64,000 bases of DNA, taken from Candidatus Woesearchaeota archaeon CG10_big_fil_rev_8_21_14_0_10_37_12. GTDB lineage: Archaea; Nanobdellota; Nanobdellia; Woesearchaeales; ARS49. The DNA lies in NCBI GenBank assembly GCA_002762795.1, contig PCYA01000017.1, forward strand, positions 801 to 64,800, written 5' to 3'. Positions 3,876 through 64,000 of the stretch are shown here, piece by piece. The notes under the pieces were generated by a model. That model was not told the DNA's origin and ran no database searches. It was given only the letters and a program-made list of their open reading frames with translations. Both the position numbers and the translations under genes were made by a program. Position 1 is the first letter of the stretch; every line of letters begins with the position of its first letter.

Positions 3876-3897
3876 TTTGGTTACCTCCTTTTAGCGT

Positions 3898-3980
3898 GTC
3901 AAGAACCACCCGTCAATAGACGGGTGGCATGAAGCGATAGCTTCATCTTCGCTTGTAATGACCAGTGGTTCTTGAGCACA
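3898..3980 (-). repeat. MITE-like element copy A (terminal inverted repeats CAAGAACCAC / GTGGTTCTTG) followed by a hairpin cluster to 4057
   Basis: Inverted repeats gtcaagaaccacc (3898-3910) and agtggttcttgag (3964-3977); internal hairpins CCACCCGTC..GACGGGTGG and GAAGCGATAGCTTC; reverse complement aligns with copies at 44663-44763 and 51441-51533. Confidence 0.6.
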
Positions 3981-7127: not shown

Positions 7128-7406
7128 TTATTTTTCTCCAATTTTTAAAGGAACTAATTTAATGCTTTTTGCAAGACTTTCTAACAAATCAGTGCCTGCA
7201 TACCCTGCAACAAATGCCATGATTGTGCTGTTGCCGAGAACACTTCCAACAATTGCGCCAATAATAATTGCTATAAGAACTGTGCTCAGCAAATATGTAA
7301 ACACAAAAGTTCTGCCTTCAAGAAGGGCTTTTCTTACTCCAAGAAGACCTCTAACTAAGCCTCCAAGTCCGCCAAGCAATGCAAACATTACCCAGAGATT
7401 GATCAT
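7128..7406 (-). CDS. small membrane protein
   Basis: 92 aa, Gly-rich TM helices. Confidence 0.35.
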   Translation of the reverse strand: MINLWVMFALLGGLGGLVRGLLGVRKALLEGRTFVFTYLLSTVLIAIIIGAIVGSVLGNSTIMAFVAGYAGTDLLESLAKSIKLVPLKIGEK

Positions 7407-7588: not shown

Positions 7589-7756
7589 AAATAAAAATCC
7601 CCGCCGCAAGCAGCGGGGTACAAGAAAATTCTTTGAATTTTCTGTACAGGAAAAGCATGCTTTTCCTTGTATTTTTAAAGTTATGATACTCCATCGATGG
7701 TAAGAAAAACAAGGACGAACCCAACCGCCCCAAGGAGCGGGGTATCATAACAAATG
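7589..7756 (+). repeat. structured ~165-bp repeat copy 1 (multi-hairpin, ends in ATGAA)
   Basis: Near-identical to the reverse complement of 45898-46042. Contains hairpin CCCCGC-CGCAAGCA-GCGGGG, hairpin GTACAAGAAAATTC-TTT-GAATTTTCTGTAC, and a 13-bp outer stem GTTATGATACTCC...GGGGTATCATAAC enclosing CCATCGATGG and CCGCCCC-AAGGA-GCGGGG. Confidence 0.55.
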
Positions 7757-7805
7757 AACAACGAAAAAAGAAAGAAGGATATATGGAGAAAAATTCTAAG
7801 CAACA

Positions 7806-7836: not shown

Positions 7837-9795
7837 ATGCCAAAGGAAACATATTATATTACAACTGCAATAGCATATCCTAATGCGAAACCACACATAG
7901 GGTATGCGTATGAGTTAATCATGGCTGATTTTCTTGCACGATGGAATTCTTTACTTGGGAAGGATGTTTTCTTTCTAACAGGAACAGATGAGCACGGACA
8001 AAAAATAGAAAACACTGCAAAAAAAGAAGGAAAAACACCAAAACAATTTGTTGATGAATATGTCACATACTTTCAAGAACTTTGCAAAAACCTAAACATT
8101 GCAAATAATAACTTTATACGAACAACAGAAAAAAGACATACAAAAACCTGTCAAGAAATATTCAAAAAAGTACAAGACAAAGGATTAATTTACAAAGGAA
8201 CATATGAAGGATTGTACTGCACAGGCTGCGAAGCATTCTATACTGAAAAAGACCTAAAAGAAGGTAAATGCCCAAATCATTTGAAAGTTCCAGAACTGCT
8301 TAAAGAAGAAAGCTACTTTTTCAAAATGTCAGTTTTCCAAGAACAATTAATCAAACACATCGAAAATCACCCAAATTTTATTTTTCCAGAATCACGACGA
8401 AAAGAAATATTGAACAGATTACAAGAACCACTTAAGGACTTAAGTGTAAGCAGAACATCCTTCAAATGGGGGATACCAGTACTGGGAGATACCAAGCATG
8501 TTATATATGTCTGGTTTGATGCACTTCTAAACTACATTAGCGGCATTGGATATCCCGGCAAAAAATTTCAAAAATACTGGCCAGCCAACTGTCATGTTGT
8601 CGGCAAAGACATCGCTTGGTTTCATACAGTAATATGGCAAACAATGCTCATGGCAGCAGACATCGAACTGTCAAAAACAGTGTACAGCCATGGATTTTTA
8701 ACAGTAGATGGGCAAAAAATGAGCAAAACATTGGGCAACGTGATTGACCCAATAGAAATATGTGATAAATATAATGCAGACTCAATACGCTATGTTCTCT
8801 TACGTGACGTAGTGCCGGGAGAAGATGGAGATTTCTCAGAAAAAAATTTGGTTAATAGAAACAACGCAGATTTAGCAGATGCACTGGGTAATTTATTGCA
8901 AAGAACATCCACATTAATTCATAAAAATTTCAATGGAAGCATTCCTGTTTGCGGTAAATTAATATCTAAGGAAAAAGAGCTTGAAAGTGCAATTCCAGAA
9001 ATAGCTGAGTTAAATAATTTGGTTGAGCAATATCAGTGGAACAAATTAATAGAGCTTGTCTGGCAATACATTCATCAATGCAACAAATATGTGAATGACA
9101 CTCAGCCATGGACTTTAGAGGGAGAACGATTGGCAACAGTTCTTTATACGTTAATTGAACATTTACGCATTATTAGCATTCTTGTCTGGCCAATAATTCC
9201 GGAAAGTGCAGAAAAACTAGCAGAAAAGCTTGGACAACCATTAGGAAAACTCAAAGATGCGAAGTTCAAAAAATCAACAAGAGGAATAGTGGCTGCACCA
9301 GAGCCGCTGTTCAAAAAGTTTGAGTATGCGGAAGAAGAAAAATCACTGCTGAACATCAAAGCAGGAAAAATAATCAGCGCACAAAAACATCCTGAAGCAG
9401 ACAAACTATACATCTTGCTCGTTGATATCGAAACAGAAAAAAGAACCATTGTTTCAGGACTAAGAGATTATTGCACAGAACAAGATCTGCTTGACAAAAC
9501 AATACTATTGCTTGTTAACCTAACACCTGCAAAAATAAGAGGCATAGAAAGCCAAGGAATGGTATTGACCTACGAACATGGCAGCGTAATAAAACCTGTT
9601 GAAATTAATGCAAAACCAGGAGAACAAATAACAATAGGAGAGCTAAAACCGCAAACGAAAAATATCTTGTTTAGTGAGTTTGAAAAACTAAAACTCCAAG
9701 TACAGAATAATAATTTGATTTGTGATGGAAAAATATTACAGATTAACGGAAAACCAATACACACAGACATGCCAAATGGAACAAAGATACGATAA
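7837..9795 (+). CDS. metG: methionyl-tRNA synthetase with C-terminal tRNA-binding (EMAP-like) domain
   Basis: HIGH motif (KPHIGYAYE), KMSKS (KMSKTLGN), zinc knuckle CTGCEAFYTEKDLKEGKCPNH, EMAP/Trbp111-like C-terminal domain. Confidence 0.95.
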   Translation: MPKETYYITTAIAYPNAKPHIGYAYELIMADFLARWNSLLGKDVFFLTGTDEHGQKIENTAKKEGKTPKQFVDEYVTYFQELCKNLNIANNNFIRTTEKRHTKTCQEIFKKVQDKGLIYKGTYEGLYCTGCEAFYTEKDLKEGKCPNHLKVPELLKEESYFFKMSVFQEQLIKHIENHPNFIFPESRRKEILNRLQEPLKDLSVSRTSFKWGIPVLGDTKHVIYVWFDALLNYISGIGYPGKKFQKYWPANCHVVGKDIAWFHTVIWQTMLMAADIELSKTVYSHGFLTVDGQKMSKTLGNVIDPIEICDKYNADSIRYVLLRDVVPGEDGDFSEKNLVNRNNADLADALGNLLQRTSTLIHKNFNGSIPVCGKLISKEKELESAIPEIAELNNLVEQYQWNKLIELVWQYIHQCNKYVNDTQPWTLEGERLATVLYTLIEHLRIISILVWPIIPESAEKLAEKLGQPLGKLKDAKFKKSTRGIVAAPEPLFKKFEYAEEEKSLLNIKAGKIISAQKHPEADKLYILLVDIETEKRTIVSGLRDYCTEQDLLDKTILLLVNLTPAKIRGIESQGMVLTYEHGSVIKPVEINAKPGEQITIGELKPQTKNILFSEFEKLKLQVQNNNLICDGKILQINGKPIHTDMPNGTKIR

Positions 9796-11791: not shown

Positions 11792-12949
11792 ATGAGTGGA
11801 GCAGGAACTAGTAGAGGCATATCTCACTATGACCCATATACGGGAAGATATTCTGTAAATGGATCTGAAGGAAAAAGAAATGCTATTATTGGCAAATCTG
11901 GGCCTATGATTGGCCTTTTTTATGTTGTAGATGGACTAGCAAACGGAAATTGTCCTGTCAGGATTCATGGAGAAACAGGCACTGGAAAAGAATCAGTGGC
12001 GCGTGCTTTACATTATAATGGTAAACGTGCTCAGTTCCCTTTCGTTATTGAAAATTGTGGAGGAGTGCCTCCTCAGCTTTTAGAAGATAGACTATTTGGT
12101 CACGTAAAAGGCGCGTTTACAGGTGCAGTCAATTCATATTCTGGAAGTATTGTTAACGCAAATGGAGGCACGCTGTTTTTGGATGAAATTGGTGATATGC
12201 CTCTTGAATTGCAGGGTAAACTTCTTCGTGTGCTTGAAGAACGTGAAGTTGTTCCATTGGGAAGTACAACACCTGTGCCTGTTGATTTTCGTCTTGTTAC
12301 TGCAACACATAGAGATTTAGAAGAATTAACTCGAGAAAGAAGGTTCAGAAAAGATTTGTTTTACCGAATTTCTGGCTGGAACTTAGATGTTCCTTCACTG
12401 AGTGAACGAGAAGATGATGTATTGCAGCTAACAGATTATTTTCTTTCACGATACGCCCCAGATAAAGATATTGCATTATCCAACAAATTAATTCAGGAGT
12501 TGAAGCATCATTCTTGGCCAGGCAACATACGCCAATTGGAATCCGCAGTGCACCGAGCAGTAACAGCGCATTATGGATTTTTTAACTCGCAAAATGATAT
12601 TTTATTAGTTTCTGATTTTGAACCTAACTTTGGTGCACATACAACTCTCGATACAAAACAAACTCCGCGCCTTCACTATCTGAAAGTAGGCGTTGTCTCA
12701 TATTCAGAACTACAACAAATTGATGGCGTCCTTACTGGAAATGCACTCCGTCAAGTTCTTTCTGCGCATGGACAACCAATTTCTCAAAATGGAAACGCAC
12801 CAGAACTCTATGTTGTTACCGAAAGAACACTTCCTTACTTGGTTTCACCACAAGCAGCAAACCGTTCTGCAACAGTAGGAAGACTAGATGTTCTGCTTAC
12901 AGAAAGAGACGCAGTTATACAAGCTTTAAGAACCTCTCTTAATACCTAA
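11792..12949 (+). CDS. sigma-54 interaction (bEBP-type AAA+) domain protein, no receiver or HTH domain
   Basis: Walker A GETGTGKE, ...NCGGVPPQLLEDRLFGHVKGAFTGA with an intact GAFTGA loop, Walker B GGTLFLDEIGDM, Arg fingers, WPGNIRQL; CGT/CTT-rich codon usage unlike neighbours. Confidence 0.85.
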   Translation: MSGAGTSRGISHYDPYTGRYSVNGSEGKRNAIIGKSGPMIGLFYVVDGLANGNCPVRIHGETGTGKESVARALHYNGKRAQFPFVIENCGGVPPQLLEDRLFGHVKGAFTGAVNSYSGSIVNANGGTLFLDEIGDMPLELQGKLLRVLEEREVVPLGSTTPVPVDFRLVTATHRDLEELTRERRFRKDLFYRISGWNLDVPSLSEREDDVLQLTDYFLSRYAPDKDIALSNKLIQELKHHSWPGNIRQLESAVHRAVTAHYGFFNSQNDILLVSDFEPNFGAHTTLDTKQTPRLHYLKVGVVSYSELQQIDGVLTGNALRQVLSAHGQPISQNGNAPELYVVTERTLPYLVSPQAANRSATVGRLDVLLTERDAVIQALRTSLNT

Positions 12950-13582
12950 CACTTTTAATTTTCTGTGTAAAGTTTCAAATCGCAAACCGATTTTTCTGGC
13001 AGTTTTGGAAATATTCCATTTGTTTTCTTCTAATGCTTTTTCAAAATACATTTTTTCAAACTCTAATTCTGCTTCTTTTAATGTTGCAGGTTTTTCAGGA
13101 AGTTCTTTGCTAATGTCTTCAGAAAGTTGTGGAGCTTCAGCATAAAATGCTTTGTATCGATCAAGACTTAACGCGCTTTTGTACTGTTCTAAAGAGTCTT
13201 GAATTATGTCTTGCACGGCCAAGCGCTTCACGTATTTTCCTTTTTGCATGATGTCGCGAAATTTTTCAACTTCAATTTTCATTTCAGCAATAAAGCGATG
13301 AATGCTTCGCCTATCAACATTGGCAAATTTTGCAACATCTGCAACATTGCCAAAATTTAATTGCAATAGCTTAGCAACATATTCTTTTTTGAATTTCTTT
13401 TTTGCTTGCTTGAACTTTAAATTTGTATTAATTTCAAAATCCAGCAAGCTGCTTTTTTTGAGCTTGTCAGAAATATCGCTTTCTAGCTCAGTAATTGTAA
13501 TGCCGAGTTTTGTGTGCATAGCATCTTCTAACAAAGGTTTAATTTTTTGTTCTACAAGGCGCTCTAATTGCTCATCAATCAT
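12926..13582 (-). CDS. protein with two Fis-type HTH_8 domains
   Basis: FGNVADVAKFANVDRRSIHRF and EENKWNISKTARKIGLRFETLHRKLK both match the HTH_8 consensus (GN.s.AA..LGisR.TLyRKLK); convergent with, and overlapping by 24 nt, the AAA+ gene. Confidence 0.7.
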   Translation of the reverse strand: MIDEQLERLVEQKIKPLLEDAMHTKLGITITELESDISDKLKKSSLLDFEINTNLKFKQAKKKFKKEYVAKLLQLNFGNVADVAKFANVDRRSIHRFIAEMKIEVEKFRDIMQKGKYVKRLAVQDIIQDSLEQYKSALSLDRYKAFYAEAPQLSEDISKELPEKPATLKEAELEFEKMYFEKALEENKWNISKTARKIGLRFETLHRKLKVLGIKRGS

Positions 13583-36073: not shown

Positions 36074-36526
36074 GTGGGACAATATGTGGTTGATAATGGG
36101 CGTAGAATCCAATACGCAAGTAGTGTTGATTACACATTTGATTTGCTCATTAAGAAAGACGATGTGACTTACTCGTTTAGTGTCTCATTTAATGCTAGGC
36201 AGGATTACACTCCGGACATAGCGAAAATTGAAGCAGGAGTTCTTGTTGGTCGAGTGCACTATGTTTCCGTTAGGGATGGTAAACTTGATGGTCTTTTCTC
36301 AACAAATGAGCCAATGGACGAGCTTGCTAATTTCTGGGATGGCTGGCCTGATACAACAAATTTCGATGAAGCCGTTTTAATTGATAAAAATTCACCAGAA
36401 AGTAAGAAAAATGAAGCAAGACAACAATATGCTCGATTCATGAATGAAATAGCAGAGTTAATACGAACAGGAGATTTGGTCGTAACTGAAACAGAGTCGC
36501 ATAAAATAGCTGCGCTTCCAGAATAA
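36074..36526 (+). CDS. hypothetical globular domain; probably the C-terminal extension of the giant protein, same frame
   Basis: GTG-initiated ORF; the 243 bp between the giant gene's TAA (35828-35830) and 36074 are open in the same frame, have no ATG/GTG/TTG, and encode Q-rich sequence like the giant protein's C-terminus. Confidence 0.4.
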   Translation: MGQYVVDNGRRIQYASSVDYTFDLLIKKDDVTYSFSVSFNARQDYTPDIAKIEAGVLVGRVHYVSVRDGKLDGLFSTNEPMDELANFWDGWPDTTNFDEAVLIDKNSPESKKNEARQQYARFMNEIAELIRTGDLVVTETESHKIAALPE

Positions 36527-36527
36527 A

Positions 36528-36576
36528 ATGATAACCAAAACCTCGCCAAACGCGTGGAATTTGTTTGTTAAACACA
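36528..36576 (+). repeat. direct repeat 1 (49 bp): duplicated 5' end of the membrane-protein gene flanking the TA cassette
   Basis: atgataaccaaaacctcgccaaacgcgtggaatttgtttgttaaacaca; encodes MITKTSPNAWNLFVKHK then terminates; nearly identical to 37639-37690. Confidence 0.6.
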
Positions 36577-36610
36577 AAAAAAGAAACCTTTAAATACTAT
36601 TGGTTCATAT

Positions 36611-37628: not shown

Positions 37629-37638
37629 CACTGGAAAA

Positions 37639-37690
37639 ATGATCCTTACAAAAACCTTACCAAACGCGTGGAATTTGTTTGTTAAACACA
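37639..37690 (+). repeat. direct repeat 2 (52 bp) matching 36528-36576
   Basis: atgatccttacaaaaaccttaccaaacgcgtggaatttgtttgttaaacaca. Confidence 0.6.
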
Positions 37691-38448
37691 AGCAATACCT
37701 TATATTATTTGTATTGTTAGACTTTGTCTTTTTGTTCTTTACAGCACAAGCCCATTTAACTTATTTTATTCCGACAGCAGATGCGGCAAACAGAGCAGGA
37801 GAAATTATCACGCAAGAACTGCAAACACTGCAAATGACAGATGCATACCAACTGGACGCTATTCTAATGCAAAATTCGCAGTTTAAACAAGCATATCATG
37901 ACTTATTGCAAGGCATAATTTACTTTTTTATCACCATGTTTATCATCTGGATAGTTATCAGGTCAGCAATCTGGCACATCAGCTACAAAATAATTCATAA
38001 AAAAACAAACTGGAAAACAAACGTGCTCAAATTTGCACTGTTTAGCCTTTTTTGGTTTGTTGTTGTTGCAATCGTGTTCGTTCTTTACAGTATATCAACA
38101 GGAAGCACAGCAACATTGTTACCAATAGTTGGAAATCCGTTAATTAGCATATTGATGATTGCTCTGTTTGTTCTAATTTATTATTTCAGTCAGATAAGTT
38201 TTGCTCTTGTGCCGGTACAACAAAGTTTTAATAAGACCTTTGCTTACGGAGTAAAATATGCCAAGAAATTTGTTCCAGTGGCACTTATAAATGCAATAAT
38301 TGTGTTCCTTGCACTCAGTCTGCCACTTAACTGGCTGCAAACATACCCAATAATATCACTTGCAATAATCATAATCATCAGCATACCAGCACTCGCATTT
38401 GCACGAGTGCATATAATCGGAGCAACAGAATGGGTAAAAAAATATTAA
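37639..38448 (+). CDS. polytopic membrane protein
   Basis: Start set at ATG 37639 (MILTKTLPNAWNLF), since this N-terminus is what is duplicated at 36528; ORF track extends to 37591; 6 TM helices. Confidence 0.5.
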   Translation: MILTKTLPNAWNLFVKHKQYLILFVLLDFVFLFFTAQAHLTYFIPTADAANRAGEIITQELQTLQMTDAYQLDAILMQNSQFKQAYHDLLQGIIYFFITMFIIWIVIRSAIWHISYKIIHKKTNWKTNVLKFALFSLFWFVVVAIVFVLYSISTGSTATLLPIVGNPLISILMIALFVLIYYFSQISFALVPVQQSFNKTFAYGVKYAKKFVPVALINAIIVFLALSLPLNWLQTYPIISLAIIIIISIPALAFARVHIIGATEWVKKY

Positions 38449-42376: not shown

Positions 42377-44383
42377 ATGGCAGCAAAAAAACAAATAGAG
42401 AATTTTGAAAAATCATCAGAAAATAGTCAAAATTCTCTAAGCAGTGCTTTGAATAATAAAAAAAGTAACCAGCCAAAGCACTCAGCAAAGAAAACAGAAA
42501 CATACGAAAAACAGGAAAAACCAGAACAATCATATGGTCAAAAACAAACAACAAAAACAGAACAAAAAGAAGACTTTATTCCACTAAGTGTACCAAAAGA
42601 AGTTGTGGAGCAACTCAAACCAATCAAAGACAAACTTGTCAAGTTTCAAAAAACAATTACTGAAAAATTTGACAAATACATCATGGGTATTGCGTTATTA
42701 CCACCACCATTACCACCTCTGAAAAATTTACCTCCAGATATACTGGCACAAGAACAAAAAAGATACGATCAGGAAAAAGACAAATACCACACCTTAGTTC
42801 TCATAGATGATACAGAACCAACACGAATGAGCAAACTTGAGTTAAAAGATAAATTAACTGCAATCATGGATAAATCAGCAATAGAAATTGACCAAAAAAT
42901 ATACCCTCAGCCACTATTGCTCACAGAACTCTGGCAAAACTGTTATGATGGGAAATATGACTTGCTCAAACTTATAGGGATGAGTGCTCCTATTTATGAC
43001 ACTGGAATGCTTGGAGCAGTACGCATTGCAGAAATGCACAAAAATATGGTTCTCAAAAAATTTGAGAAGTACATTGTAACATACGTTCTTGCAGGATCAT
43101 TAGTACAAGGACGAGCAACAAAAGAATCAGACATAGATGTCTTTATTGTTATTGATGATACTGACGTTAAGAAAATGTCACGAACAGAACTTCGTGACAA
43201 ATTGCGAGCGATTATTCTAGGAATGGGTGCAGAAGCAGGTGAATTAACAGGCATCAGAAACAAAATCAACATTCAACCGTACATCCTAACAGACTTCTGG
43301 GATATGATACGAGAAAGTAATCCTGTTATATTTACTTTCCTGAGAGATGGAGTTCCTTTCCACGACAGAGGAATATTCATGCCATGGAAACAACTGCTCA
43401 AAATGGGCAAGATAAAACCATCAACAGAAGCAATAGACATCTTCATGAGCTCAGGAGAACAAACGCTAAACAAAGTCAAACTGCGATTGCGAGACATTGG
43501 AGTAGAGGATTTTTTCTGGGGAATTCACACACCAACACAAGCAGCATTGATGTTATATGGTGTTGCACCACCCGCACCTAAAGAAACGTGTGGAGTACTT
43601 CGAGACTTATTTGTCAAAAAAGAAAAACTGCTTGAAGAAGATTATGTAAAAATCCTTGAAAATGTTATTCAGGTCAGAAAAGACATAGAACACGGAACAA
43701 AAAAAGAAATCACAGGCAAAGAAATAGACCAATTGCTTGCAGACTCTGAAAAATACATGAAAAGACTCAAAAAATTATTTACACAAATCGAAAAAATTAA
43801 GGAAGAAGAAAGCATGTTGCACATATATGACACCATGCAAACAATGCTACGCGATGTACTGAAAGTAGAGGGTGTTGATAGGGCAGCAGAAGGGGAATTA
43901 GCGCATGTTTTCGAGGAAGAATTAATTAGTACTGGAAAAGTTCCTGCTAAGTATTTGAGAACTCTGCATGACTTGCTAAAAGCAAAAGCAGACAGTGACA
44001 AAGGAAAACTTGGCAAAACAGAAATTGATCAGGTGCGCAAACAAGCAAATGAGCTAATCAGATATCTGGTTGATTACACACAACGCAAAAGAGTACGCGC
44101 ATTTGAACGAAGCAAAATCAAGGTAAAACACGGCAATAAATACGGCGAAATAGTGTTGCTTGGTGATTCAGCGTTCATAATTACTGACATGGATGCAAAA
44201 GAACGCGTTGTAGAAGAAGCACCAGTGAAAGAAGACGGAAGTTTTGGAACAGCAAAAAAAATAAAACCAGAAGAGTTTGAAGAAGCAATGACAAAACTCT
44301 CACCAAGAAAAGTAACATTGACTTCGAATTTGTTTGAGAGCATAACAAAAATATTCGGTAAAGATTGCGAAGTGCTTTATTGA
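42377..44383 (+). CDS. large Lys/Glu-rich protein with tandem Pol-beta-type nucleotidyltransferase domains (first degenerate) and helical C-terminal region
   Basis: YHTLVLIDDTEPTRMSKLELKDKLTAI (degenerate copy) and YVLAGSLVQGRATKESDIDVFIVIDDTDVKKMSRTELRDKLRAI (intact GS..DxD); 300-aa helical C-terminus. Confidence 0.55.
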   Translation: MAAKKQIENFEKSSENSQNSLSSALNNKKSNQPKHSAKKTETYEKQEKPEQSYGQKQTTKTEQKEDFIPLSVPKEVVEQLKPIKDKLVKFQKTITEKFDKYIMGIALLPPPLPPLKNLPPDILAQEQKRYDQEKDKYHTLVLIDDTEPTRMSKLELKDKLTAIMDKSAIEIDQKIYPQPLLLTELWQNCYDGKYDLLKLIGMSAPIYDTGMLGAVRIAEMHKNMVLKKFEKYIVTYVLAGSLVQGRATKESDIDVFIVIDDTDVKKMSRTELRDKLRAIILGMGAEAGELTGIRNKINIQPYILTDFWDMIRESNPVIFTFLRDGVPFHDRGIFMPWKQLLKMGKIKPSTEAIDIFMSSGEQTLNKVKLRLRDIGVEDFFWGIHTPTQAALMLYGVAPPAPKETCGVLRDLFVKKEKLLEEDYVKILENVIQVRKDIEHGTKKEITGKEIDQLLADSEKYMKRLKKLFTQIEKIKEEESMLHIYDTMQTMLRDVLKVEGVDRAAEGELAHVFEEELISTGKVPAKYLRTLHDLLKAKADSDKGKLGKTEIDQVRKQANELIRYLVDYTQRKRVRAFERSKIKVKHGNKYGEIVLLGDSAFIITDMDAKERVVEEAPVKEDGSFGTAKKIKPEEFEEAMTKLSPRKVTLTSNLFESITKIFGKDCEVLY

Positions 44384-44535
44384 TTTTTTATCTCAAATGT
44401 TGGGTCTAATACAAAGAAAATTCTCAGAGTTTTCTGTGCGCGAAAAATGTATTTTTCGCTGTAGAAAAATGAACGATACCAATAAAATTCTTAGAATTTT
44501 ATGGCGCCAAAAAATGCTTTGAATTTTTTGAGCGA

Positions 44536-44580
44536 AATACCCTGACCTTCAGGTCGGGGAATGGTGCGTTTTTCTTTATT
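44536..44580. repeat. GC-hairpin plus T-tract element copy 1 (CCTGACCTTCAGGTCGGGGAATGGTGCGTTTTTCTTTAT)
   Basis: ~90% identical to 49991-50035; sits between convergent gene ends. Confidence 0.5.
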
Positions 44581-44662
44581 TTATACGTCAGAAATATACC
44601 ATCAGTCTATTTGACTGATGGACAACGTCCCTATTACTATAGTAATCTGGTATATTTCTGAG

Positions 44663-44763
44663 CATGCTCAAGAACCACTGGACTATATTTTCTTATAACT
44701 TTCTGAACAGTCATGCCACTGGTGTTTAGCGACGAAGGAGCGATCACCAGTGGTTCTTGACAT
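44663..44763 (+). repeat. MITE-like element copy B
   Basis: Inverted repeats ctcaagaaccactgg (44668-44681) and ccagtggttcttgac (44747-44761); internal sequence ~80% identical to copy C; preceded by nested hairpins 44589-44660. Confidence 0.6.
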
Positions 44764-44790: not shown

Positions 44791-45900
44791 TTAACTCTTC
44801 TTCGCAAACAAATCAACCATTTTTGCAAATACTTTTGAAATTGGTGTTATTATTGATGTTTTGTATTCGCTTAACACTAATTTTTCAATTGCATGTTTAA
44901 TAAGTGCAGGCAATCGTCCAGTAATTACTTTTTTATTTGGCAAAGTCAATATTGCATTATGATCTCCTAAACTTATTACAAGCGGAGCACTTTTTGGAAT
45001 ATACTTCTTTAATGTCTCTTTTCTCTCCAAACAAAGAATATTCCTGACAATCGTGTGCGCATGACGCTCTGCATTCTGAGCAGTCTTTTCCTCTTTAACA
45101 TTATTTATGTCACCGCCAACAAAAATGTTCTTTGTACCTTCTAACTGCAAATAATTATTTACCTTTAACGCACTTCGTTCGTCGCAAAACTTTTCTTTGT
45201 TTTTCATAAACCAAGGGTTGTATCTGATTCCTGCACACCACAACGCAGTATCTGCAACAATTTTTTTTCCTTTATCAGTTAAATACGTTTTTTTTCCTTT
45301 ATGTTTTTTAACTCGTTCACCAAATATGATTTTAACGTTATGGGCTTTCAAAAAATTTTCTGCATAAGTTGATGCTTTTACAGGATTTCTTTCAAGCAAA
45401 CGTTCTTTTGGATGAACAAGTGTGACATTTACTTTTGGAGCTTTTGTAATAAGTTCGCCAGTAATTTCTGTACCAACAAGACCTCCACCAACAATTAAAA
45501 GATTCTTGCTTTTACAGATATATTTTCCAATTCTCGTAGCCTCGCTGCCTGATTTTAGCGTGTACACATTTGTTTTATTTTCTAAAAAAACAGGATAATC
45601 AATTCCTGTGCAAACTATCAAATAATCAAAGTTTAGTGTTTCTTTGGCTGTTTTGACGTGTTTTTCTGTAACTTCCAGTAGTTTGTCCGTTACTATTCTT
45701 GTACGTTTTAGAAAATTTTTGAAAGGAACAATTATTTTTTTGTGATATTTTGAATCAAAAATAATTCTGTGAATGCTCGGCGTGTATTCAAAATAATTTT
45801 TCTTATCAATTAAAATAACTTGAAAATCAGGCAAAACATTAAGTTTCTTTGCAGCTAATGCTCCGCAAAAACCTCCACCAAGGATAATTATTTTTTTCAT
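44791..45900 (-). CDS. FAD-dependent pyridine nucleotide-disulfide oxidoreductase (NDH-2/SQR-like)
   Basis: Two Rossmann motifs IILGGGFCGALAA and LLIVGGGLVGTEI, 369 aa. Confidence 0.7.
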   Translation of the reverse strand: MKKIIILGGGFCGALAAKKLNVLPDFQVILIDKKNYFEYTPSIHRIIFDSKYHKKIIVPFKNFLKRTRIVTDKLLEVTEKHVKTAKETLNFDYLIVCTGIDYPVFLENKTNVYTLKSGSEATRIGKYICKSKNLLIVGGGLVGTEITGELITKAPKVNVTLVHPKERLLERNPVKASTYAENFLKAHNVKIIFGERVKKHKGKKTYLTDKGKKIVADTALWCAGIRYNPWFMKNKEKFCDERSALKVNNYLQLEGTKNIFVGGDINNVKEEKTAQNAERHAHTIVRNILCLERKETLKKYIPKSAPLVISLGDHNAILTLPNKKVITGRLPALIKHAIEKLVLSEYKTSIITPISKVFAKMVDLFAKKS

Positions 45901-46042
45901 TTGTTATGATGCCCCACTCCTTGGGACGGTTGGGTTCGTCCTTGTTTTTCTTACCATCGATGGGGTATCATAACTTTAAACCCGAGAAAATTCAAAGAAT
46001 TTTCTTGTACCCCACTGCTTGCGGTGGTTGGGATTTTTATTT
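45898..46042 (-). repeat. structured repeat copy 2 (reverse orientation), abuts the start codon of the oxidoreductase gene
   Basis: Reverse complement aligns with 7589-7756 but lacks a ~30-bp internal segment; its terminal ATGAA supplies the start codon of the 44791-45900 gene. Confidence 0.55.
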
Positions 46043-49608: not shown

Positions 49609-49923
49609 TTAAGAATACTTCCACTTAACACCAATCTGAACAATACTAATCACCAATGCAACAATATTGCACAATACAACTGGAATTGCAGCGATAAGAA
49701 AGCCATAAATTGCCCACAGCAAACAATTAAATAAATATAACGTAAGCATAAGCCAAGACAAATCTTGCACACTCTTTGTTCTTATTGACTTAATCACTTG
49801 AGGCAACATTAAGGCAGTGCCAATTATTGCAGCAAGATATCCTATTACGTTTATTATTGCAAAGTTCGCAAGAACTTTGTAGATGGGTTTAATACAAGGA
49901 AAAGCAGAGCTTTTCCTGTACAC
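49609..49923 (-). CDS. SemiSWEET/PQ-loop family small transporter
   Basis: 104 aa, 3 TM helices, LMLPQVIKSIRTKSVQDLS PQ-loop motif; GTG start. Confidence 0.55.
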   Translation of the reverse strand: MYRKSSAFPCIKPIYKVLANFAIINVIGYLAAIIGTALMLPQVIKSIRTKSVQDLSWLMLTLYLFNCLLWAIYGFLIAAIPVVLCNIVALVISIVQIGVKWKYS

Positions 49924-49975
49924 AAAAATCTTTGATTTTTGTTGTACCCCGCCCTTTAGGGCGAACTTTGCAAGT

Positions 49976-50035
49976 AGAAAAACGCACGATAAAATACCCC
50001 GACCTTCAGGTCGGGGAATAGTGCGTTTTTCTTTA
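49976..50035. repeat. GC-hairpin plus T-tract element copy 2 (AAAAACGCAC...CCCCGACCTTCAGGTCGGGG...GTGCGTTTTT), likely bidirectional terminator between ftsZ and the SemiSWEET gene
   Basis: Nested perfect stems CCCCGACC/GGTCGGGG and AAAAACGCAC/GTGCGTTTTT flanked by T-runs on both strands; a second hairpin CCCCGCCCTTTAGGGCG at 49947-49963. Confidence 0.5.
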
Positions 50036-50110
50036 TAATTGCATTCATTGTTTACCTGAAAAAAGGATATTCACAAAATTAAAAATAGTTAATAAAAAAG
50101 AAAATAAAAA

Positions 50111-51175: not shown

Positions 51176-51440
51176 CTTTGCAGCCTCCTCTTTTATTTAC
51201 GGGATCACTCCCTGTAAGCATAAAAGGCTCTCCATGTTTGTGGGTTTGGGGGGTGGATATGGGGAAAGAAACAGTGGAGAGCCCATTTTGAGCATGAAAT
51301 GAGACGCTGATTCAGTGTCTCGGAATATATTACCTCTCTTTCCCTTTTTTCATATGTCGGAATGTCACTCGTCGGCATTCCGAGCATGATCAAGCCAAGA
51401 AAATGCAAAGCATTTTCTGGCCCAGAAAATCCTCTGGATT

Positions 51441-51533
51441 TTCTTGGGAACCGCTGGTCATTTTTTCTTATGATTTTCTGACCAGACACTGGTGTTGAGC
51501 ACCGCATTGCGATCACCAGTGGTTCTTGACATG
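51441..51533 (+). repeat. MITE-like element copy C
   Basis: Inverted repeats cttgggaaccgctggtc and gatcaccagtggttcttgacat; right half ...cactggtgttgagcacc..gcgatcaccagtggttcttgacat near-identical to copy B; hairpins 51330-51440 precede it. Confidence 0.6.
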
Positions 51534-51682: not shown

Positions 51683-52078
51683 ATGGTAATACTATATGAT
51701 AGATATAATTTGCCTGAAGATGTGTACGAGATTATTTTCTCGACGAGTCAACAGATTATTGTAGCAAAAGAACTCATCAAATACATGGCGAAGAAAAAAG
51801 GAGAAATTAGCAAAACAGAGATGAGTGACTTTGCAACAAGGCTGCATGACGGCAATTATGAATGTGTTCTAGATGAGCCACCCTATAAGGGAAAACGGGT
51901 AAAGCTTTCTTACAACAAACGGCAGTTTTATGACAGAATATTAACTCCTATGAAAGCCATGGGACTTATCGACTACGATCTATATAAAAAAACATATAAA
52001 TTGTCAGCGAAATTTGCGTTAGAAATGGTTCAAATAGGCGAAAAGTGGAAAAAAGAACTACAAAAGTTCAATTTATGA
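51683..52078 (+). CDS. hypothetical protein (possible wHTH)
   Basis: 131 aa. Confidence 0.4.
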   Translation: MVILYDRYNLPEDVYEIIFSTSQQIIVAKELIKYMAKKKGEISKTEMSDFATRLHDGNYECVLDEPPYKGKRVKLSYNKRQFYDRILTPMKAMGLIDYDLYKKTYKLSAKFALEMVQIGEKWKKELQKFNL

Positions 52079-63736: not shown

Positions 63737-63757
63737 TTAATTCAAAGTTGCCTTTAC

Positions 63758-63852
63758 GGACCGTAGGGGCTTCGAACCCCCGACCACTCGGTATCTGTCT
63801 TGAGTATATCAAGCTAAGAGCCGAGTGCTCTACCAGACTGAGCTAACGGTCC
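63758..63852 (-). tRNA. tRNA-Lys(CUU) with a 22-nt intron at the canonical 37/38 position
   Basis: Reverse complement GGACCGT-TA-GCTC-AGTCTGGTA-GAGC-A-CTCGG-CUCUUA-[GCTTGATATACTCAAGACAGAT]-A-CCGAG-TGGTC-GGGGG-TTCGAAG-CCCCT-ACGGTCC gives a perfect 7-bp acceptor, D, anticodon and T stems, U33, anticodon CUU; no encoded CCA. Confidence 0.8.
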
Positions 63853-64000
63853 AATATAAAGAAAAACAAGCGTTTCTTTTAAATATCTTGCGCAGTTATT
63901 TCCTTAACTTTTTAATTTGCAATCTAAAAAATTTCTTTACTTCTTTCACAACAGAATCTGTACTTGCAAAGAAGTCAAACAAACTTCCTATGAAAAGTGT

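Follow-up and report, generated by a model that had tools for sequence, protein, structure and literature searches.

The structured element at positions 7589 to 7756 of the window (the whole stretch of 64,000 nucleotides of woesearchaeal DNA analysed here) belongs to a modular, palindrome-rich and lineage-specific family of interspersed repeats, with at least five copies in one genome. The most probable reading of this family, to which we would give a probability of about 0.7, is that it has spread as a non-autonomous mobile element inserting at AAAT. A first-pass annotation of the window, which had described the element as present twice, each time ending in the ATG of a downstream gene or reading frame, had proposed a cis-regulatory 5' leader, a small RNA or a mobile promoter/leader module. 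The last of these candidates comes close to the evidence presented below, which speaks against the other two: the element is probably a non-autonomous mobile one rather than a gene-specific leader or a small RNA. The five known copies, referred to as c1 to c5, are as follows.

c1 (copy 1), 7589-7755, + strand: whole element with both AAATs, 167 nt, in the divergent spacer between a 92-aa gene (7128-7406, - strand) and metG (7837-9795, + strand); covariance model CM R1 (see below) scores 116.9 bits on 7672-7757.
c2 (copy 2), 45899-46042, - strand: whole element with both AAATs, 144 nt, making up the entire (tandem) spacer between a 147-aa gene and the NDH-2 gene.
c3, L002 1200-1445: tandem spacer, with the PCNA gene downstream.
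c4, L004 9468-9297, minus strand: divergent spacer.
c5, L007 4414-4531: convergent spacer.

Both copies in the window were found where the first-pass annotation had placed them, and they are homologous and strongly folded. Identity between c1 and c2 reaches 94% over the 88 nt at the 3' side (7674-7761 and 45893-45980) and 95% over a 43-nt block of the 5' part; a BLAST alignment of the two gives only 79% (176 columns), because a 26-nt hairpin of c1 (7645-7670) is absent from c2. A 29-mer of the element has two matches in the window, with none expected by chance. The shared ending that had been noticed is also real, both copies terminating in ...CATAACAAATGAA (in its longer form, GGGGYATCATAACAAATGAA). 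As had been said, the ATG at 7754 in c1 opens a reading frame (of 39 codons), which overruns the metG start codon at 7837 in another frame.

That the element is present twice is true inside the window and not across the genome. The search for further copies that the first-pass annotation had recommended was carried out as a metagenome scan with one invariant 21-mer of the element as query, and it added three copies (c3, c4 and c5, on contigs of 266 kb and 282 kb), the other matches being re-assemblies of the known copies and three chance matches in GC-rich DNA. Only five copies are known and all were picked by this one exact 21-mer, so that the apparent invariance of that stretch is inflated. 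Proteins encoded beside c3, c4 and c5 carry COV18_ locus tags, as do the genes of the window; all five copies therefore belong to one MAG (three contigs), that of a Crystal Geyser woesearchaeote. GC content and tetranucleotide usage of the additional contigs match those of the window.

The five 3' modules were used to build a covariance model, CM R1, which gives 109-117 bits for each of the five copies and at most 22 bits for everything else in about 117 kb; its best secondary matches are a hairpin at the 5' ends of these same elements (hairpin A, matched by model positions 40-69). With filters off, a search of the window and ten loci for diverged copies of the 3' module found none, only hairpin A being cross-matched. 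Two scans of viral contigs gave zero matches and hence no sign of a viral origin, and a protein search with a spurious 87-aa reading frame spanning the element returned no candidate copies. Independent assemblies of several samples (L003, L008, L009, L016-L018) contain these copies too, and short(-read) assemblies break within or beside the element, as is expected of a repeat. The copies are mosaics of each other: in their 5' parts c2 groups with c3 and c1 with c4, in their 3' parts c1 groups with c2, and gene conversion may account for part of the similarity among them. An inversion of the 38 kb between c1 and c2, which have opposite orientations, was also considered; recombination within the copies would leave no mark of it in the sequence.

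All five copies share one order of modules. An AAAT is followed, past the left border, by AAAAAT, a GC-rich hairpin (A), the linker GGGGTA and 0 to 5 AT-rich palindromic units of about 30 nt each (none in c5, one in c2, two in c1 and in c4, five in c3); then come T(2-5)AAAG, an 85-nt 3' module and a second AAAT, after which the element ends. Its length varies from 118 to 245 nt among the five copies, and it is non-coding, with no conserved reading frame; a micro-ORF in the 3' module (ATGATAC...) was considered as a conserved one and rejected, as its frame and length differ among copies. The parts are located in c1 as follows.

7599-7618, + strand: GC hairpin A (CCCCGC-C-G-CAAG-C-A-GCGGGG).
7618-7672, + strand: two AT-rich palindromic units, B (7618-7647) and C (7644-7672).
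7674-7679, + strand: TTTAAA box, invariant in all five copies.
7680-7751, + strand: 3' module, with a 13-bp inverted repeat (7680-7692 and 7739-7751).

GC hairpin A is made of a stem, a C.A mismatch, one G-C or C-G pair and a CAAG loop. Read on the - strand, hairpin A of c1 is a perfect stem including a U.G pair, with a CUUG loop and a ATTTTTATTT tail, and is terminator-like. Units B and C of c1 each have a stem of 12-13 bp, a loop of 3-4 nt and one bulged base, and a run of five T directly follows unit C, the unit that is missing from c2. The 3' module is bounded by the arms GTTATGATACYCC and GGRGYATCATAAC and encloses, in c1, an invariant A-rich stretch and a second hairpin, A' (7725-7740); the one stretch of this module that varies among copies is located after the TATA-like box and before the predicted start site of transcription. 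Hairpin A' repeats hairpin A in direct orientation, and in c4 both are one identical sequence of 25 nt. As judged from the alignment and from pair counts, A and A' are imperfect, subterminal hairpins present on the same strand at both ends of the element. Terminal inverted repeats were not found, the left end (AAAAATCCCAACC) being unrelated to the reverse complement of the right end (GTTATGATACCCC), and the sole long inverted repeat, of 13 bp, encloses the 3' module and not the whole element.

The borders of the copies are sharp. In all five, homology ends exactly at AAAT on both sides, with an AAAT preceding the left end and another forming the right end, and the flanks beyond are unrelated, in divergent (c1, c4), tandem (c2, c3) and convergent (c5) spacers alike. 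The base after the terminal AAAT is G, G, A, G or C among the five copies, so that the terminal "ATG" is no more than AAAT plus a flanking G, present in three of the five. In c2 the element reaches into both neighbouring genes: the stop codon of the 147-aa gene (TAA, 46039-46037) falls within its left AAAT-AA, and the NDH-2 start codon (ATG, 45900-45898) is its right AAAT plus G. It could be that the AAAT at both ends is an integral part of the repeat rather than a duplication of the target.

What insertion would have done at three of these sites was reconstructed from the sequence. Deleting c2 and one AAAT in silico gives ...GAT TTT AAA TGA / ATG AAA AAA, a predicted site in which the 147-aa gene and NDH-2 would share a 4-nt ATGA stop/start overlap; with c2 in place, the 147-aa gene stops at the TAA formed by AAAT and AA. 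The upstream gene of c3 would keep its TAA stop codon with or without the element. At the convergent locus, the opposing reading frame takes its final two codons and its stop codon from the 3' end of c5, the insertion of which would have swapped five C-terminal codons for two. The empty sites predicted in this way are plausible, reading CGTTATGGTTTTGATTTTAAATGAAAAAAATAATTATCCT for c2 and GATTAAAGTCTTGCATTAAAATCAAAGTCATTTCCTGCTA for c5. A natural empty site was not encountered, as all assemblies that cover the c2 locus include the element, the orthologous NDH-2 loci are unusable for this comparison because they have different upstream genes, and the convergent reading frame at c5 gave no homologues with which its C-terminus could be compared. 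Neither was a transposase found among the 29 reading frames of the window scanned with Pfam.

The AT-rich palindromic units are not confined to this element (type 1 hereafter). We distinguished 15 of them, all with a stem of 10-13 bp despite differing arm sequences, loops of 3-4 nt (7 nt in two) and usually one bulge, which may lie in either arm. Elsewhere in the window they occur in these places.

44410-44530, + strand: array of four AT units, in the convergent spacer after the gene at 42377-44383.
49855-50045, - strand: type 2 mosaic repeat, also found at 44535-44579 (+ strand, partial) and at L004 1920-2070 (+ strand).
49891-49952, - strand: partial relative inside this type 2 repeat, with a GGGGTAC linker and two AT units (B' and C) whose stems covary.
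51395-51447, + strand: two AT units with overlapping alternative pairings.

The type 2 repeat reads AAAGAAAAACGCAC-[CCCCGACCTGAAGGTCGGGG]-GTGCGTTTTTCT in its first part and TTGCAAAGTTCG-[CCCTAAAGGGCGGGG]TA-(0 or 2 AT units)-TTAAACCC...GCGAACTTTGCAA in its second. The window copy differs from that of L004 by a clean 52-nt gain of two AT units, with GTA on both borders, between GGGGTA and TTAAACC (GGGGTA/TT). The same junction, GGGG-TA-[units]-TA-TTTTTAAAG, is seen in type 1 when c5 is compared with c1 and c4. As the AT units are common to type 1, type 2 and the arrays, several repeat families are built from shared palindromic modules. The type 2 repeat may also contribute N-terminal codons to a PQ-loop-like reading frame (49609-49923, - strand), whose sole in-frame start before the first transmembrane helix is a GTG in one of the AT units of this repeat.

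A third structured repeat lies downstream of the DoxX gene (3897-3975, - strand), downstream of NDH-2 (44662-44763, + strand) and in the spacer upstream of ftsZ (51444-51532, + strand), with a remnant at about 2050-2075 of L004; it has a closing stem of 10-14 bp (TCAAGAACCACTGG...CCAGTGGTTCTTGA(CA)), inner hairpins and no Rfam match. A direct repeat of 53-56 nt (36525-36577 and 37636-37691, + strand, 88% identical, ACCAAAACCTCGCCAAACGCGTGGAATTTGTTTGTTAAACACAA) is located beside TTTAAA upstream of two neighbouring genes, for which it may serve as a common operator or promoter. Between ftsZ and the divergent gene at 51683, a spacer of 500 bp contains a G-rich non-coding stretch followed by AT units (51176-51360, either strand), and this stretch, which has no Rfam match, could be an unannotated non-coding RNA. 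Outside the repeats, a tRNA gene of 98 nt (63756-63853, - strand, 53.9 bits with Rfam), the anticodon of which ARAGORN cannot name, is presumably an intron-containing archaeal tRNA. The reading frame at 11792-12949 (+ strand) has a Walker A motif and GAFTGA, the signature of bacterial sigma-54 enhancer-binding AAA+ proteins as far as reading the sequence goes, and the adjoining one (12926-13582, - strand) has a Fis-type HTH_8 domain (Pfam), a pair unexpected in an archaeon. The window also encodes the GTPase NOG1, FtsZ and the termination factor FttA, which, like the intron-containing tRNA, agree with an archaeal host; its NDH-2 protein is 100% identical to one of 'Candidatus Woesearchaeota archaeon CG10_big_fil_rev...' encoded on a 784-kb contig.

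The folds proposed by the first-pass annotation are recovered by RNA structure prediction: the GC hairpin, the AU hairpin(s) and the 13-bp outer stem all appear, with free energies of -55.0 kcal/mol for c1 (z = -5.8 relative to shuffled sequences) and -43.7 kcal/mol for c2 (z = -3.9). The paired substitutions it pointed out are likewise real, hairpin A having CCGC/GCGG in c1 and CCAC/GTGG in c2, and so are the wobbles, the 3' hairpin of c2 having two G.U pairs; the outer stem of c2 contains one A.C mismatch. What does not follow is that such changes betray selection on RNA and not on DNA. The reverse strand folds equally well (-56.9 kcal/mol, z = -5.3), and wobbles are balanced between the strands: over all hairpins there are about 11 G.U pairs on the + strand against about 9 A.C mismatches, each of which is a G.U pair on the other strand. 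The balance is 7 to 6 in the AT units and 4 to 3 in the GC hairpins and outer stems. Seven of the eight GC hairpins keep the C.A mismatch, which would be a U.G pair on the - strand, where the loops read CUUG.

Covariation is unevenly distributed over the element. Two pairs of hairpins A and A' show double-sided changes (G-C to A-U and C-G to G-C), with a covariation score that none of 500 shuffles reached, and the AT units covary extensively, from which it follows that base-pairing potential is maintained in both. In the 3' module, one of the 19 pairs covaries, the covariation term is 0 and conservation is equal in loops and stems. Palindromic DNA repeats that arose recently from a common source would show such a pattern, which does not demonstrate selection on RNA. 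The recommended Rfam search (version 15, covering the entire window, both with gathering thresholds and with E<=5) returned only the tRNA and matches at chance level, leaving the element without an Rfam family. Readings as a C/D-box, H/ACA or tRNA-like RNA were tried by eye and discarded, for want of a D box, a two-sided pocket and a T-arm.

As the first-pass annotation had claimed, the ATG that closes c2 is the start codon of NDH-2, the gene of an NDH-2-like pyridine-nucleotide-disulphide oxidoreductase: the GGGFCG Rossmann motif begins at residue 7 of the protein and Pyr_redox_2 extends over residues 3-281. This is the only one of the five copies in which the terminal ATG serves as a real start codon. 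The distance to the next start codon, 0 nt for NDH-2, is 81 nt for metG, about 100 nt for PCNA and about 120 nt for the gene after c4, and c5 faces the 3' end of a convergent reading frame and has no downstream gene. These neighbours (MetRS, NDH-2, PCNA, an unknown gene and the convergent reading frame) are functionally unrelated. The metG gene has a TATA box of its own (TTTATAAA, 23 nt before the ATG), with the geometry of the other leaderless genes of the window and of the NDH-2 orthologues; PCNA has its own TTTAAA and a Shine-Dalgarno sequence, and the gene downstream of c4 has a TATA-like stretch weaker than the boxes of metG and PCNA.

NDH-2 orthologues of about 60% identity in two other Woesearchaeota have spacers of 31 nt in which TTTTTAAA lies 23 nt before the ATG, and the element is absent from these two orthologous loci, where CM R1 found nothing at E<=1. 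Both have GGTTTTTAAAC in common (L011 2468-2503 and L013 2469-2503), a leaderless-type promoter located 23 nt ahead of the start codon. These orthologues are preceded by a DoxX or a DUF1905 gene, and the DoxX gene of the window is 40 kb from NDH-2. Upstream of NDH-2 in the window, no TATA box near -30 and no Shine-Dalgarno sequence at -9 to -14 was found, and the gene would therefore be expressed through or from the element; c2 is the one copy that the earlier idea of a mobile promoter/leader could fit.

The element also carries what look like transcription signals. A consensus scan of both strands for a hairpin followed by T5 found six terminator-like sites in c1 against 0.4 expected, and two in c5 against 0.2 expected; hairpin A of c5 sits between A5 and T5, amid convergent genes. 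At the other side of the AT units, the TTTAAA box resembles the TATA boxes of this genome and those of the NDH-2 orthologues, and on this resemblance it may work as a TATA box facing outward; were transcription to begin about 24 nt past it, a conserved leader of some 50 nt would result. Any effect of these terminator- and TATA-like signals on adjacent genes would, on the preferred reading, be a side effect of the element.

Alternatives in which the element is a part of its neighbouring genes fare poorly. A plain segmental duplication of the 5' region of one gene, or an assembly artefact, would account for 3' halves that are 94% identical; as the five copies have five unrelated pairs of flanks, and recur in independent assemblies from several samples, we regard both as refuted. 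A structured cis-regulatory RNA (a riboswitch- or thermosensor-like leader) or a small RNA, maintained by selection for RNA folding, is largely refuted as well and in our view very improbable. Such an RNA would fit the strongly predicted folds and some of the compensatory and wobble changes, and the outer stem of c2 would mask the GGAG/GGGG that immediately precedes the NDH-2 start. Against a leader stand the single copy in five placed at a real start, the varying distances to genes unrelated in function, the convergent copy with nothing downstream of it, and the NDH-2 orthologues that do without the element. A small RNA would be expected to show a promoter and terminator pair, and no conserved pair was found on either strand, nor a conserved promoter outside the element that could serve a reverse-strand transcript. 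To both, the symmetry of the wobbles between strands, the near absence of covariation from the 3' module and the lack of any Rfam match even at E<=5 are hard to reconcile.

A more serious rival, though still an unlikely one, is that the host selects the element as a terminator-promoter cassette insulating neighbouring transcription units. The 5' part (hairpin A, the AT hairpins and T5) would terminate incoming transcription from either direction, and TTTAAA would restart it about 24 nt further on, with a 5' UTR of about 50 nt (AAGAAAAACAAGGACGAACCC...GGAG..GGGG). This would explain why terminator-like sites exceed expectation so far on both strands of c1 and c5, why hairpin A of c5 lies between A5 and T5 with convergent genes on either side, and why c2 and c3 begin at the stop codon of the upstream gene. 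It also agrees with a TTTAAA box that is invariant and matches the TATA boxes of the clade, with 3' module variability confined, as in a real promoter, between that box and the predicted start site, and with an NDH-2 gene that has no other TATA box or Shine-Dalgarno sequence at the usual distances. But c1 and c4 are in divergent spacers, where no incoming transcript needs terminating; past the element, metG and PCNA possess TATA boxes of their own, and the c4 gene a weaker, TATA-like stretch; and the "promoter" of c5 is aimed into the 3' end of a convergent gene. Transcription starting at 24 nt would moreover leave the 5' arm of the 13-bp inverted repeat untranscribed and the repeat itself unexplained. 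Termination in archaea requires oligo-T and not hairpins, and c2 and c3 have only T3 ahead of the TATA-like box. About equally doubtful is a more specific proposal, in which the element is mobilised as single-stranded DNA through its two mismatched same-strand GC hairpins, going in 3' of AAAT by "peel and paste" in the manner of IS200/IS605 or RAYT systems, and/or serves as a portable terminator-promoter cassette.

The spread of a non-autonomous mobile element thus remains the preferred reading, and the following course of events would account for the family. The element would insert at AAAT, either duplicating AAAT or going in 3' of it. The AT palindromic units would form a separate, nested layer, gained and lost at GTA/TA junctions. 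The hairpins would persist by virtue of the element's own biology, through recognition or propagation as DNA, and not because its neighbours need a leader. Effects on the host would be secondary, a hairpin with T5 being terminator-like both ways, and c2 would by now have become the whole 5' region of NDH-2.

Recognising the element as a palindromic interspersed repeat avoids the mis-annotation of what appears to be a structured leader with compensatory mutations. It also indicates that a small DPANN genome (about 1.3 Mb or more) holds several nested families of hairpin repeats, which reach into stop and start codons, break assemblies and probably add terminator- and TATA-like signals, a matter of relevance to the annotation of Woesearchaeota, to the quality of MAG assemblies and to the prediction of promoters and terminators. 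Should the doubtful single-stranded reading be true, this would be a hairpin-guided family of mobile DNA not described before, hosted by a DPANN archaeon, and the element would at the same time be a portable bidirectional terminator with an outward TATA box that has taken over the 5' region of NDH-2. If a hairpin-dependent transposase were linked to it, the family would offer a compact system for the study of mobile DNA in DPANN archaea.

Several known groups of small repeats share features with the element. As is the case for MITEs, it is shorter than 300 bp, non-coding, multi-copy, intergenic and highly paired, and its AAAT borders resemble a target-site duplication; unlike MITEs, it has no terminal inverted repeats at its outer ends and so fails the definition of that group. 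A woesearchaeal genome has been reported to be among the most MITE-dense of archaeal genomes (census, PMC11602168). The PATEs derived from IS200/IS605 elements offer a different parallel, with mismatched subterminal hairpins on the same strand (as A and A'), no terminal inverted repeats and a fixed tetranucleotide 5' of the left end, which here also makes up the last four bases of the right end. PATEs insert without duplication, and the AAAT pattern of the element is compatible with this while being indistinguishable from a 4-bp duplication. Unlike what is known of PATEs, neither a Y1 transposase (TnpA/RAYT) nor TnpB was seen among the 29 reading frames of the window (Pfam). As for the strand specificity of PATEs, c1 (+) and c2 (-) have opposite orientations and are 38 kb apart; the cumulative GC skew declines nearly monotonically along the window, with no reversal and no sign of an origin or terminus between them. 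Strand-specific insertion would not lead one to expect this, which leans against a PATE, although skew is weak in archaea. The Correia elements (CREE/NEMIS) of Neisseria, a precedent for repeats that create promoters, are also interspersed, can carry terminator or processing hairpins and can alter adjacent expression, with which the conserved TTTAAA and the position of c2 ahead of NDH-2 may be compared; they differ in being bacterial, in their terminal inverted repeats of 26 bp and in their TA duplication, and are not similar to the element in sequence.

In architecture, the closest parallels are the REP/BIME mosaics and the BOX elements of pneumococci, by analogy and with no claim of homology. 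REP/BIME, known from enterobacteria and pseudomonads, are extragenic mosaics of imperfect, bulged palindromes of 20-40 nt, in both orientations and joined by short conserved linkers, and the AT units may be likened to them, with their linkers GTAC and GGGGTA and their recurrence in the mosaics of types 1 and 2 and in the arrays at 44.4 and 51.4 kb. REPs, however, are GC-rich, reach copy numbers in the hundreds and go together with RAYT (Y1) transposases, whereas the units described here are AT-rich, and the large conserved 3' module has no counterpart in BIMEs. The element differs from BOX in its sequence, its archaeal host and the number of copies known (at least five), as well as in its ends: the terminal inverted repeats of BOX pair, while here the outer ends are not inverted and the GC hairpins are direct repeats. 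Another terminator-like repeat, SPRITE, is enriched between convergent genes (Croucher et al. 2011, PMC3049150), a setting similar to that of c5. The overall design brings to mind that of BOX (boxA-boxB(n)-boxC), as both are small intergenic repeats in which conserved end modules enclose from zero to several internal hairpin modules, tightly folded and able to supply stop codons, start codons and reading frames.
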